Positions 30,825 through 36,390 of a stretch of 64,000 nt of DNA are shown here, piece after piece (position 1 is the first letter of the stretch; each line of letters begins with the position of its first letter). A program made the position numbers and the translations under genes. The stretch is from the sequence record OR525702.1. The stretch is one strand, 5' to 3'. Under the pieces are notes generated by a model, which searched no databases, was not told the origin of the DNA, and saw only the letters and a list, made by a program, of their open reading frames with translations. The stretch comes from Escherichia phage vB-Eco-KMB23.

Positions 30825-31298
30825 TTATTTGAACGATTTAACGTACTGAATAGAACCTTTACTATTTACAAAGGCAATTTTACCATTTTTATTATACATT
30901 GTAGCAGTACGTTGATAGCCATAAGTTTGTTTACCAGATTGATAACCAACTAATGCAAAATTATCTTCACCCATTTTATTCTGTTTAGCGCGAATGCGTT
31001 CATGACCATGTGCCATAAGAACCTTAGCATCACCAGTTGCAATGGATCGACGAGTTTTTTCATCTTCAACTGTATTAACAAAGTCGTCAAATGAATCAAA
31101 TTTAGCATGAGATTTATTATACAGTTTTCCATCTACTGCATAATTATATCCTTGTACATCCATCTCAATTTCTGTACCATCATCCAATACAGCAGTAATT
31201 TTCTGTCCTTTTTTAAATTTCAAAAGATCAGTAAAAGATTCAGCAATAATTTGAGAATTAATAGCTGCTTCAGTGATAAATTCTTGATATGTTTTCAT
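30825..31298 (-). CDS. Internal (capsid-targeted, injected) protein, IPII/IPIII-class
   Basis: N-terminal capsid-targeting sequence MKTYQEFITEA (T4 IP consensus MKTYQEFIAE with prohead-protease site I-x-E); adjacent to e as ipII/ipIII are in T4. Confidence 0.7.
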   Translation of the reverse strand: MKTYQEFITEAAINSQIIAESFTDLLKFKKGQKITAVLDDGTEIEMDVQGYNYAVDGKLYNKSHAKFDSFDDFVNTVEDEKTRRSIATGDAKVLMAHGHERIRAKQNKMGEDNFALVGYQSGKQTYGYQRTATMYNKNGKIAFVNSKGSIQYVKSFK

Positions 31299-31351
31299 GT
31301 GTTTCCTTTAAATATTTTAATTAGTAATTTGTCTCTTCAAGCAACTGTGAA

Positions 31352-31382
31352 TATACTATCACAATTCTAGGAGAAAGTAAAC
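31352..31382 (-). promoter_or_regulatory. T4-type early promoter upstream of internal-protein gene
   Basis: Minus strand GTTTAC ... TAGTAT. Confidence 0.45.
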
Positions 31383-31386
31383 AACT

Positions 31387-31881
31387 TTATAGATTTTTAT
31401 ATGCGTCCCAAGTGCCAGTTCTAAACGTCGCAATGACTCGTTTTGCACGATTAGGTGTTTGATTATACCATCTACTTTTAGCTAAGTTAACTGCTGCTTC
31501 ATCCCAGCGTTTTTGTTGAAGCATACGTAAAGAATTAGTAAATCCTGCTACACCAGTTTCTCCCATTTGGAAAACCATATTAATCAATGCACAACGACGA
31601 ACCGCATCAAGAGAATCATAAACCGGTTTTAATTTAGCATTTCTCAAAATTCCGCGAACAGCAGCATCAACATCCTGATTAAAAAGTTTTTCAGCCTCAT
31701 CTTTTGTAATTACACCATTGCAATTACGCCCAATAGCTTTATCTAATTCAGATTTAGCAACACTTAATGATGGACTTTTAGTAAGCAAATGACCAATGCC
31801 AATAGTGTAATAGCCTTCTGTGTCTTTATAGATTTTAAGTCTAAGACCTTCATCTATACGTAACATTTCAAATATATTCAT
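31387..31881 (-). CDS. e: Endolysin (T4 lysozyme)
   Basis: 164 aa; [35 protein letters not shown]... near-identical to T4 lysozyme with a few substitutions. Confidence 0.95.
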
Positions 31882-31917
31882 AATACCTCCTAAGTGTTTA
31901 TAGAAGGTATTTATAAA

Positions 31918-32373
31918 TTAAAAGAGGCTGTTCATTATTCGGTAAAGTGAAGGACCCATCACATATTGCCACTGAGTACGAGGAATAAGAGCAAAAGCAT
32001 CCATCTCTGGAATCATAACGCCATCTTTATTTTCAAAATAAGACTCGCAATGGCAATTTCTGAACATCTCATGCTCTACTGGAATCGTATAATAAAATAA
32101 CTGTAAGTCTTTATTACTAGAATATTTAAATACACCTAGGTCTTCTAGAAGGTCTGGATTATAATTGCTAAAACCGGTCTCTTCTAAGCATTCTCTTTTT
32201 GCAGCTTCCAGTGCATTCAAATCAGAACTTTCTACACGGCCCTTTGGAATATCCCAACGATGTGCCATCATTCCAGGCTTACGAGAACCAGTAACCCGAC
32301 CCATAAATAAATCTTTATCTTCTGTCATAAAGATAATACCAGCTGATAGTGTTTTCATTTTAATTTCCTGCAT
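31918..32373 (-). CDS. nudE: Nudix hydrolase
   Basis: 151 aa; Nudix box GRVESSDLNALEAAKRECLEETG. Confidence 0.85.
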   Translation of the reverse strand: MQEIKMKTLSAGIIFMTEDKDLFMGRVTGSRKPGMMAHRWDIPKGRVESSDLNALEAAKRECLEETGFSNYNPDLLEDLGVFKYSSNKDLQLFYYTIPVEHEMFRNCHCESYFENKDGVMIPEMDAFALIPRTQWQYVMGPSLYRIMNSLF

Positions 32374-32843
32374 TCAGTGATAAAGTTATTTAAATTTTGA
32401 GTATATTTCTTTTCATCAAAAATCTTTTGTTGTCTGCGTAAACGCCATGGCATTTCAATGAACACGCACCACATTCCTGATAATATTGCTGCTGTCAAAA
32501 TATTAACAAGCATAATTAAAAGAATCCAATCTCCTGTTCTGCCTATTGGACTTTCACCAAAGAAGCAAAATACAAATGATGTCACAGGAAAACTAATGAT
32601 ATACCACAGAATCATAATCTTATTTGTAAACCAATCAGCGTTCGTTAGCTTAGCGCGACCATTATGAATACACACGAATTTATCATCTGTTATAATAGAT
32701 GGCTTAGCTGCTTGATATCCCATTCTAAACTCCCTAATCAACAAATTTTTCATATCTTCGGAACAACCATTCCAGTCAACTCTATTAACTGAAATGCCAT
32801 CATCCCCATCATCTAAATCATACCAGCGAGTTTTTAAAATCAT
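32355..32843 (-). CDS. Membrane protein, C-terminal CRKLK tail
   Basis: Two hydrophobic helices; C-terminus FITECRKLK. Confidence 0.5.
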   Translation of the reverse strand: MILKTRWYDLDDGDDGISVNRVDWNGCSEDMKNLLIREFRMGYQAAKPSIITDDKFVCIHNGRAKLTNADWFTNKIMILWYIISFPVTSFVFCFFGESPIGRTGDWILLIMLVNILTAAILSGMWCVFIEMPWRLRRQQKIFDEKKYTQNLNNFITECRKLK

Positions 32844-33202
32844 TTAATTTTCCTGCAATCACTCACAAACTCTTCCATTGATTCTTTTTCAATATAAGAC
32901 ATGTAGTTGTTATATTCCTTTAATTGTATTTTGTAATCCTTTTTTCTTTGCCAATTTATTTTAAAATTATCATAATGAAAATATAACATGGTACCAAAGA
33001 ATGAAAATAATGAAATAATTTTAGTATAGTGAAGTTCACTCCAAACTTCTATTATATTTACTGTGCCGTCAATGTTTAAAATAATACAGTCAATTAACAA
33101 TCCAAAAAGACTACCCGCAAGAGCTGCAGCCAACGCCACAGCAAAAATTAAAAATGACTCAGGAAGAGAATATTTGACTTTATTTAGTTTTGGCTTTTGC
33201 AT
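32840..33202 (-). CDS. Small 2-TM membrane protein, C-terminal CRKIK tail
   Basis: Hydrophobic helices LIFAVALAAALAGSLFGLLI and IISLFSFFGTMLYF; C-terminus EEFVSDCRKIK. Confidence 0.55.
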   Translation of the reverse strand: MQKPKLNKVKYSLPESFLIFAVALAAALAGSLFGLLIDCIILNIDGTVNIIEVWSELHYTKIISLFSFFGTMLYFHYDNFKINWQRKKDYKIQLKEYNNYMSYIEKESMEEFVSDCRKIK

Positions 33203-34836: not shown

Positions 34837-35370
34837 TTATATCATGCTATTTAAGAGATGTAAACTATTTTTAATTTTACAAATTCGTTCAGCTTCTTCA
34901 ACAGCGGCAGTGATAATGCTTTTAGCTATAGGAGTACTAATACTAGTAGCTTTTACACTTAACACGATTTCTTTATCTTTACCAGGCCAACCCCACGATT
35001 TTTCACCATGAGTGCCTTTAATTACAGCAGACACCTCAAGTGAGCATCCATTATCACATGTTTTTACATTAACAACCCAAGTGTCACTTTTCTCAACCGG
35101 TTTATCCCAGTAAATATTAAGAATACGTGGGACATCAAATTTAGCAGGGCAAATCTTAACAGTAAGACCTTCGCTTTCTAGCCAATTAATAAGAGGGCGT
35201 TCATACATGCGGCGATGTGGGCTTTGAACTCGACAAGCTTTGTACCCATTGCTTGCGGCTTCACTAAGCTCTTCTAATACCTGCTTTTGCATTATTGATA
35301 AGATACCATCAAAAGATTTTTCGGAAGTTTCATTCAGTTCGGTATAAAGAGACATAACAGTTTTCCTCAA
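34837..35370 (-). CDS. Hypothetical protein, 177 aa
   Basis: ORF track. Confidence 0.55.
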   Translation of the reverse strand: MRKTVMSLYTELNETSEKSFDGILSIMQKQVLEELSEAASNGYKACRVQSPHRRMYERPLINWLESEGLTVKICPAKFDVPRILNIYWDKPVEKSDTWVVNVKTCDNGCSLEVSAVIKGTHGEKSWGWPGKDKEIVLSVKATSISTPIAKSIITAAVEEAERICKIKNSLHLLNSMI

Positions 35371-35411
35371 ATTATAGGCTCATAATATCTCAATCATGAG
35401 CCTATGTAAAC

Positions 35412-35687
35412 TTATTTCATATTATTGAAATATTCTTCTGCAATTTCGTCGTTATCATGATAAACTTTAGAAGACAGTTTAACATAACCTTCAGCAGTGA
35501 ACATGTTAATCACAACCTTTACAGTATACCACTGACCATCTTCATTACCCATTACTGCGTAAGTTTCAAACATCGGATGATCAGGACCGATAACTTTAAT
35601 ATCATTCACTGTACGACCAAAATCTTCTGAAACACATTTCATAAAGAAGTTGAACAGTTCGCCGTAATTATCCATTTCATTCTCCAA
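35412..35687 (-). CDS. Hypothetical protein, 91 aa
   Basis: ORF track; early promoter immediately upstream. Confidence 0.5.
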   Translation of the reverse strand: MENEMDNYGELFNFFMKCVSEDFGRTVNDIKVIGPDHPMFETYAVMGNEDGQWYTVKVVINMFTAEGYVKLSSKVYHDNDEIAEEYFNNMK

Positions 35688-35718
35688 GTTGTTTTCTGTA
35701 TCAGTAGTTGATAGTTGT

Positions 35719-35748
35719 ATAGTACCATAGAAGAACAGGGATGTAAAC
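35719..35748 (-). promoter_or_regulatory. T4-type early promoter
   Basis: Minus strand aaaaaatttttcacaaaactGTTTACa ... TACTAT. Confidence 0.5.
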
Positions 35749-35881
35749 AGTTTTGTGAAAAATTTTTTAAAAAGTTTTGGGGAATTCTAGGGCAAGGAGG
35801 GGAAATTAAAGGATAGGATAATATATTATAAAGGGTAGAAACTAAATGATGCCTAGAGAGGCCTGGAAAGGCCTAGATACC

Positions 35882-35906
35882 AAAAAGCCCCAACCTTTTG
35901 GTCGGG
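35882..35906 (-). terminator. Rho-independent terminator
   Basis: Minus strand CCCGACC-AAAA-GGTTGGG then GCTTTTTG. Confidence 0.6.
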
Positions 35907-35916
35907 ACTAAGAATG

Positions 35917-36390
35917 TTATTTGATTTGTTTAGCAGACCAAATGCGGTCTTTAATAATTTTTTGGATGTCTTCAACATACTCGAGAGAATGAGCATGTGG
36001 GTTATCTTTAAAGCTATGAGCACGAGCTAGCTTTTGGCCTTCAGTTTTGATTACTAAAAGCTCTTTAAGGATAGCTTCATATTTGGAGATAATTCCTTTA
36101 ACGATATTTTTTTCTTGTGCGACTTTAGGATCTGCTTTAGGAGCAGGTTTACCCGAAGCCTTTGCAAAAGCAGCGCCAGTAGCAACTAAACTTTTCCAGG
36201 CCATACTAACTGCATTTCCCGTAAATCCTTCCGCTTTCATGTCGCGTGCGAACTGGAATCGTGATTCATCAGAAGCATCTTTGTAAGAATATTTACCCGC
36301 TGCAATGGCTGCTTTTGCGACAGCTTGAATTTCGGTGCTAGATGCTTCATTTAACACCGCTTCATTTAAAAATTGAGTATATGATTTCAT
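35917..36390 (-). CDS. Internal-protein-like (capsid-targeting sequence) protein, 157 aa
   Basis: N-terminus MKSYTQFLNEA resembles the IP capsid-targeting sequence with L-x-E cleavage motif; Ala/Lys-rich body. Confidence 0.6.
   Translation of the reverse strand: MKSYTQFLNEAVLNEASSTEIQAVAKAAIAAGKYSYKDASDESRFQFARDMKAEGFTGNAVSMAWKSLVATGAAFAKASGKPAPKADPKVAQEKNIVKGIISKYEAILKELLVIKTEGQKLARAHSFKDNPHAHSLEYVEDIQKIIKDRIWSAKQIK

Follow-up and report, generated by a model that had tools for sequence, protein, structure and literature searches.

Ip4 and a probable new member of the internal-protein class in Escherichia phage vB-Eco-KMB23

A stretch of 64,000 nucleotides (nt) from Escherichia phage vB-Eco-KMB23 (sequence record OR525702.1; hereafter the window) carries two open reading frames (ORFs) of 157 amino acids whose N-termini resemble the capsid-targeting sequence (CTS) of the T4 internal proteins (Ips). 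ORF1 (30825..31298) begins MKTYQEFITEA and lies 89 nt downstream of the lysozyme gene e. ORF2 (35917..36390) begins MKSYTQFLNEA and lies between e.8 and an rnaC-like RNA and tRNA cluster, outside both classical ip loci. These genes, like all others under discussion, are on the minus strand. We consider it likely that both encode Ips of the T4 type, ORF1 corresponding to Ip4 and ORF2 to an unannotated family with a late promoter of its own. As judged by its leader and its setting, ORF2 probably adds a new member to the Ips, in what appears to be a third, variable ip-like locus.

The T4 proteins Ip1, Ip2 and Ip3 (IPI, IPII and IPIII) each inhibit a distinct GmrSD-type enzyme (PMC12373910; PMC9391042). 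All three are specific injected inhibitors (PMC12373910), so each further leader-bearing protein is a candidate anti-defence effector. ORF2, a neighbouring gene type described below and the slot that they share would be an addition to the injected-protein repertoire and would correct the annotation of hundreds of genomes. The finding extends a known principle and introduces no new mechanism. A preliminary description of the sequence had reported both ORFs with a CTS-like leader on each. Both are present where it placed them, neither has an earlier start codon in its frame, and the leader determinants are found on both, with a resemblance that beats chance in pattern and matrix tests.

The ORF2 leader

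According to a review of work from the Black laboratory (PMC9026906), residues 1-10 of IPIII are enough for packaging, capsid targeting operates mainly via residues 4 and 7 and processing via residues 8 and 10, and gp21 cleaves after L/I-X-E. ORF2 has all four determinants, Y4 and F7 for targeting and L8 and E10 for gp21 cleavage, with Ala as the next residue. A second L-N-E occupies residues 13-15, and the predicted propeptide is a CTS with two tandem L-N-E sites (MKSYTQFLNE/AVLNE/A, encoded at 36346..36390, minus strand). Past the predicted cuts, as read in the ortholog g140 of Yersinia phage fD1, the sequence continues from A11 as AVLNEASSTEIQAVAK and from A16 as ASSTEIQAVAK. A third L-x-E site in ORF2, LKE at residue 110, falls within a predicted long helix; if accessible to gp21, it would split the mature protein.

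Among ORFs of 50 amino acids or more, three in the window open with the pattern M-x-x-[YF]-x-x-F-[LI]-x-E (Ip4, ORF2 and the ORF at 39779..40012); none did so in 300 shuffles used as a control. Furthermore, a scoring matrix trained on 13 non-redundant Ip leaders, all from outside the ORF2 family, assigned ORF2 17.1 bits. This score placed it fourth among 519 candidate Met starts, right behind three annotated Ips, of which Ip4 ranked first. The best non-Ip start scored -1.1, leaving an 18-bit gap below ORF2, and the background was -18.4 +/- 6.6.

An exhaustive profile search with the ORF2 family recovered 13 relatives among 1.8 billion cluster representatives, the most distant on contigs of only 1-2 kb. 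The motif [YF]-x-x-F-[LV]-x-E is retained even in relatives whose identity is ~40% or lower, and the remaining positions of the leader drift. The leaders of distant relatives read MKTYNEFLNES, MKSYAEFLTEQ, MLEYSEFLKEL, MKFKEFLAEAS, MLKFNEFLAEG, MINFSDFLNEG, MKSFSSFLNEG and MISFNEFVDGNLITES. The DNA encoding the ORF2 leader has diverged from that of the ip leaders, and the constraint therefore acts on the protein.

A scan of the first 24 amino acids alone against 38,880 PHROGs returned the ORF2 family first and then internal head and internal virion protein families, all matched from profile position 1. The best Ip PHROG reached E 0.05 with the window peptide, which is marginal, and E 1e-3 with an 80%-identical relative, which also matched further Ip families. 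By these comparisons the resemblance of the ORF2 leader to Ip leaders is more than chance. Coincidental similarity at the N-terminus, which, coupled with a failure to observe packaging or cleavage, the preliminary description had named as the outcome that would overturn its assignment, fits poorly with the absence of the pattern from the shuffles, the matrix rank or the retention of the pattern in distant relatives.

Six other families of 'unknown function' (phrog_3966, 15565, 31819, 23867, 21099 and 27873) match a CTS-like N-terminus from profile position 1, and further unannotated Ip families may exist among the PHROGs.

Beyond the leader, ORF2 (RB32ORF132c) gives a full-length match to phrog_2280 (unknown function; E 3e-60) and has no match to the Ip4 family (PF24183 DUF7412; phrog_3155). 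It is Ala/Lys-rich, as the preliminary description stated, with 16.6% Ala, 13.4% Lys and an isoelectric point (pI) of 9.5. These values are close to those of T4 IPIII (14%, 13.5% and 9.5, respectively) and T4 IPII (16%, 15% and 9.3). In the PP01 record the ORF2 gene is annotated with an upstream start, as 187 amino acids.

The ORF2 cassette and the slot between e.8 and rnaC

Compared with T4, the window has a 559-bp insertion located exactly at the terminator hairpin past rnaC. T4 has one copy of this hairpin; the window has two, contained in a direct repeat of 36 nt whose copies are 92% identical. The upstream copy (36436..36471, minus strand) holds the rnaC terminator hairpin (36445-36468) and the downstream copy (35877..35912, minus strand) holds that of ORF2 (35886-35909). 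The end of a T4-type late promoter, TATAAATA (36431..36438, minus strand), lies 41 nt upstream of the start codon of ORF2, and a Shine-Dalgarno sequence, AGGAA, can be read at 36396..36400 (minus strand). With this arrangement ORF2 forms a self-contained unit of terminator, late promoter, gene and terminator. Its content of guanine plus cytosine (GC) is 38.8% vs 35.0%.

The TATAAATA motif follows directly on the terminator hairpin upstream of the ORF2 orthologs of RB51, fD1, G9062 and Jiaodavirus KEN39. In KEN39 the hairpin sequence is different and the position of the motif is kept, and two Mosigvirus genomes carry AATAAATA in its place. No early-type promoter was found upstream of ORF2, whereas ipI, ipII, ipIII and Ip4 each have one. 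These features suggest that ORF2 is expressed late, at the time of head assembly.

Relatives of ORF2 occur in 511 phage records and are at least 95% identical in 357 of them. Carriers include RB51, wV7, AR1, PP01 and G4507, many therapeutic-type coliphages and phages of Shigella, Yersinia and Klebsiella, and the gene is syntenic in three genera, Tequatrovirus, Mosigvirus and Jiaodavirus. Among the matches listed, 40 of 40 are annotated 'hypothetical protein'; the sole exception among named cluster members is a UniRef entry, 'Internal head protein', from Klebsiella phage KPKp.

The slot between e.8 and rnaC is without a gene in T4, T2 and T6, and elsewhere its content differs. In G9062 it holds two tandem cassettes: a gene of the ORF2 type, another copy of the hairpin, and then a gene of 187 amino acids (gp137; L013:1801-2364). 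The second gene begins MKTYAEFLTEAAKLPSEA (an MKTYAEFLTEA leader) and its product has a pI of 9.4 and 14% Lys. A BLAST alignment of this product with ORF2 is confined to the N-terminal ~23 residues (E 0.011). In RB69 the slot holds only a gene of this second type, RB69ORF149c (L012:15551-15991), which is apparently frameshifted and matches phrog_2280 with E 6e-37. Genes of the RB69ORF149c type occur in 165 phage records, where they are listed as hypothetical, and are not found in the window. Literature searches on RB32ORF132c, RB69ORF149c and RB14ncORF136c found no relevant paper.

The slot, in which the number of cassettes varies from none to two, seems to behave like a third ip locus, because the unrelated genes found there share only the leader, as do Ip1, Ip2 and Ip3, which are otherwise unrelated to one another (PMC12373910). 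Since three genera share ORF2 at the same position, the simplest history would be that recombination between the terminator repeats removed it from T4. It is about an even call whether the slot is an unrecognised third ip locus whose late-promoter cassettes, of the ORF2 and RB69ORF149c types, encode packaged and injected anti-defence effectors with new targets. If this is true, the locus was overlooked because T4, T2 and T6 have all lost its genes, most simply by recombination between duplicated rnaC terminators. The hypervariable repertoire proposed in the preliminary description is supported only in part: the content of the slot varies, and ORF2 itself is conserved.

ORF1, the classical ip loci and neighbouring genes

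ORF1 is the already known Ip4/IpIV. It matches Pfam family PF24183 DUF7412 over residues 1-157 of 158 (E 6e-96; 319 bits with a cut-off of 27), and its E value against phrog_3155 'internal virion protein' is 8e-102. Its RB51 ortholog is annotated 'Ip4, similar to T2, RB70 Ip4', and the family is named 'IpIV internal head protein' or 'Internal head protein 4' elsewhere, in T2 and others. The family is present in 470 phage records. Ip4 was reportedly first described by Repoila et al. in 1994, as far as citing papers and database names indicate.

Alignment with T4 places this gene in the classical ipII/ipIII slot. Window positions 31893-31267 align with T4 at 95%, a segment comprising e, the promoter and ribosome-binding site of ipIII, and ~32 nt at the start of the ipIII gene, which correspond to the leader. 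The homology ends after ~32 nt of ORF1 and restarts at the base after the Ip4 stop, which is the base after the T4 denV stop. By this alignment, the Ip4 mature domain replaces the T4 block of ipIII (mature part), ipII and denV, and one of the junctions falls where the leader-coding DNA ends. A tblastn search of the entire window found no denV (endonuclease V). The gene order is e-Ip4-vs.8, matching T2; it is e-denV-Ip4 in RB51 and e-ipIII-ipII-denV in T4. The position of Ip4 is thus canonical, and only for ORF2 does the earlier claim of a non-canonical position hold. The proposed comparison with ipII and ipIII finds promoter and leader-coding DNA of T4 ipIII shared with Ip4 and dissimilar mature domains.

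The promoter and ribosome-binding module common to Ip4 and T4 ipIII lies at 31299..31386 (minus strand). A TATAAATA late-promoter motif was found by motif search upstream of e (31908..31915, minus strand), and no terminator-like site between e and Ip4. Late transcription of Ip4 probably occurs by read-through from the motif of e.

The Ip4 propeptide coding region (31239..31298, minus strand) includes codons 1-10 (MKTYQEFITE) and a second predicted gp21 site, IAE, at residue 20. Ip4 sequences carry the targeting determinants Y4 and F7, I-T-E at residue 10 and I-A-E at residue 20. Among 13 members of the family, E10 and E20 are invariant, with I, L, M or V as the third residue before each cut, and residues 11-19 are variable. 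Because the two glutamates are invariant while the residues between them vary, this suggests a propeptide of 20 residues that is cut at two sites. In g129, the Ip4 ortholog of fD1, the residues after the second predicted site begin at S21 with SFTDLLK. In the RefSeq record of phage G4507 (L001:2326-2800), Ip4 is given as two overlapping coding sequences of 363 and 120 nt, both named 'internal virion protein'. The split implies a frameshift or sequencing error there, and the gene in the window is intact.

The window also has two Ip genes in the ipI locus. One occupies the ipI slot next to 57B (40089..40346, minus strand; 85 amino acids, MKTFKEFATKTTITES; phrog_3499 'internal head protein', E 1e-49), and the region upstream of it is identical to that of T4 ipI. 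The other (39779..40012, minus strand; 77 amino acids, MKTFKEFIAES) matches phrog_8111 'internal virion protein' with E 3e-51. Together with Ip4 and ORF2, these make up the four leader-bearing proteins that had been counted in the window. Within 39779-40420, each of the tandem genes is preceded by a copy of one promoter module (aatttcacaaagttgtttaca...), which in T4 precedes the single ipI gene.

Over positions 30000-37000, identity is 99.5% with Escherichia phages ECP52 and vB_EcoM_G4507 and ~95% with RB51, RB68 and wV7; on the basis of these identities the window can be assigned to a Tequatrovirus of the T2/RB51 type. Lysozyme e, of T4 type, occupies 31387-31881 and e.8 occupies 35412-35687 (both minus strand). 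Directly upstream of the ORF2 cassette, as expected from its reported place beside the tRNA/small-RNA region, alignment to the annotated T4 gene identifies a homolog of rnaC (species 1 RNA; 36519..36656, minus strand). ARAGORN and the G4507 record place a 94-nt tRNA-Lys(UUU) at 36518-36611, inside this homolog (~36519-36656), where the Rfam tRNA model remains below its gathering score. Farther along, a gap of ~660 nt between tRNA-Ser and tRNA-Gly (37839-38499) is without a tRNA-Pro and contains two TATAAATA motifs (37842-37849 and 38165-38172). The corresponding position holds tRNA-Pro in G4507 and T4 and a truncated segB-like ORF in RB51.

Possible function of ORF2 and comparison with known systems

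If ORF1 and ORF2 encode Ips, their N-terminal ~10 residues (M-K-S/T-Y-x-E/Q-F-I/L-x-E) would bind the gp22 scaffolding core during prohead assembly and lead to enclosure in the capsid. The prohead protease gp21 would then cut after the glutamate of L/I-x-E, at E10 and probably E20 in Ip4 and at E10 and/or E15 in ORF2. Removal of 10-20 residues would leave a basic mature protein of ~15.5 kDa with a pI of 9.3-9.6, which would stay with the packaged DNA and be ejected alongside it when the next cell is infected. If the analogy with Ip1, Ip2 and Ip3 holds, the likeliest role would be to block a first-response defence, for example a GmrSD-type modification-dependent nuclease.

Both proteins have orthologs in Yersinia phage fD1, g129 for Ip4 (1 amino acid different) and g140 for ORF2 (2 amino acids different), and both are listed as particle-associated from liquid chromatography with tandem mass spectrometry (LC-MS/MS) of ultracentrifuge-purified virions, in a dataset that is non-specific. 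The paper on fPS-65 contains no proteomics. The detection of g140 peptides shows that ORF2 is translated. As evidence for packaging the detection is weak, because the same dataset also flags lysozyme e, DenV, NudE and host proteins.

AlphaFold models of the two proteins are of moderate confidence. That of ORF2 (mean predicted local distance difference test score, pLDDT, of 75) consists of helices throughout, two of which form a long hairpin at the C-terminus; its low-confidence parts are residues 4-15 (pLDDT below 50), which precede a folded helical body, and a Pro-rich linker at 81-86. In the Ip4 model (pLDDT 73; predicted template modelling score, pTM, 0.66) a helix at the N-terminus leads into a body rich in beta structure. 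Foldseek searches of both models against the PDB gave no match at E <= 0.001, and a search of the ORF2 model against BFVD returned only members of its own family. A profile of the ORF2 family found no match among PDB sequences. The structure prediction of mature domains that the preliminary description had suggested is therefore uninformative as to function, which, as far as these models go, is not readable from the fold of either protein. Direct comparison of the ORF2 mature domain with IPII, IPIII and Ip4 found no significant similarity. Two candidate relationships were rejected. Scanning ORF2 against Pfam and NCBIfam brought up no meaningful match (Shikimate_dh_N was the top Pfam entry, E 0.12), and an 'AHSF-D-P' similarity between ORF2 and T4 IPII (6 of 9 residues, E 0.03 in a single comparison) is insufficient for homology.

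Several observations weigh against the assignment of ORF2 to the Ips. Its packaging, cleavage and injection are inferred and not demonstrated, and the particle-associated set of fD1 takes in 113-137 of the 277 phage proteins as well as 672 from the host. BLASTP of ORF2 against Ip4 or IPIII reports no N-terminal match, the window leader is more diverged than the classical leaders (S3, T5, Q6 and N9), and its score against the best Ip PHROG is the marginal one given above. The window holds 12 copies of the TATAAATA motif vs 10.4 expected, which is no significant enrichment, and upstream of ORF2 its weight would come only from its position and its conservation across genera. Neither fold nor sequence links ORF2 to Ip1, Ip2 or Ip3, of which IPII and IPIII were compared directly, or to any anti-defence protein. 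Finally, ORF2 is well conserved and not fast-evolving, unlike an expected arms-race effector.

ORF2 could be targeted into the prohead by its leader and play a structural or physical part, as a scaffold accessory or as a DNA-condensing counter-ion of the kind long assumed for IPII and IPIII, instead of acting as a specific anti-defence effector. Its Lys/Ala-rich basic composition, so like that of IPII and IPIII, its conservation and synteny in Tequatrovirus, Mosigvirus and Jiaodavirus, and a helical model that ends in a long hairpin and has no enzyme-like fold would all fit such a part, and lysines of internal proteins contact DNA phosphates (PMC3012670). We nevertheless regard this explanation as doubtful. 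ORF2 is dispensable, as seen from T4, T2 and T6, and the presence, absence and exchange of cassettes in the slot fit an accessory host-range function. In addition, IPII and IPIII, once given the physical role, have since proved to be specific GmrSD inhibitors (PMC12373910).

It is improbable, although somewhat in keeping with the neighbourhood of RNA genes instead of head genes, that ORF2 is a late soluble protein outside the virion, acting in lysis, late metabolism or on RNA, and that its CTS resemblance arose by chance or from a shared preference in translation initiation. The silence of BLASTP on the N-terminus, the hypothetical status of the gene with nearly all annotators and the non-specific nature of the particle-associated list of fD1 also accord with this explanation. 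It conflicts with the matrix rank and the large gap below it, and with the absence of pattern matches in the shuffles. Moreover, the positions kept in distant relatives are the functional ones (4, 7, 8 and 10) despite the divergence of the leader DNA from ip genes, and the unrelated neighbour gene in the same slot has the canonical MKTYAEFLTEA leader. That ORF2 might be a non-functional remnant or a mis-called ORF within the duplicated terminator region, as its two flanking repeats and its absence from T4 could suggest, is effectively refuted by an intact 157-amino-acid frame kept at 95-100% identity in hundreds of genomes and also present in distant relatives, and by the fD1 peptides detected by LC-MS/MS, and it fits poorly with a gene equipped with a promoter motif, a Shine-Dalgarno sequence and a terminator of its own.

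Ip4 and ORF2 share with T4 IPI, IPII and IPIII the leader M-K-T-Y/F-x-E-F-I/L-x-E ending in a gp21 L/I-x-E site. The T4 proteins are likewise small, basic and non-essential, with mutually unrelated mature domains, and their genes are recombining promoter-plus-leader modules; Ip4 occupies the very slot of ipIII. In contrast, the mature domains of Ip4 and ORF2 are without similarity to those of the T4 proteins in sequence or fold, as far as they were compared, and ORF2 lies in neither classical locus and has a late-promoter motif only. ORF1 is the same protein as the Ip4/IpIV of T2, RB51 and RB70. The T2 copy is 99% identical and also directly adjoins e without denV, and the RB51 locus differs in nothing of substance except the denV between e and Ip4.

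The genes designated RB69ORF149c, RB14ncORF136c and G9062 gp137 ('B-type') are like ORF2 in their e.8-rnaC slot, their bounding terminator hairpins, their match to phrog_2280, their CTS-like leader, their basic Lys/Ala-rich composition and their lack of annotation. They differ in a mature domain that is unrelated by BLAST and in being absent from the window. Finally, ORF2 resembles the 'morons' of lambdoid phages (PMC1524935) as an autonomous insertion of promoter, ORF and terminator between two genes, with a slightly higher GC content. Unlike morons, it has a phage late promoter and not a host-type one, and its flanks are a duplicated resident terminator. Its synteny in three genera suggests an ancestral gene that was lost from T4 and not a recent gain.

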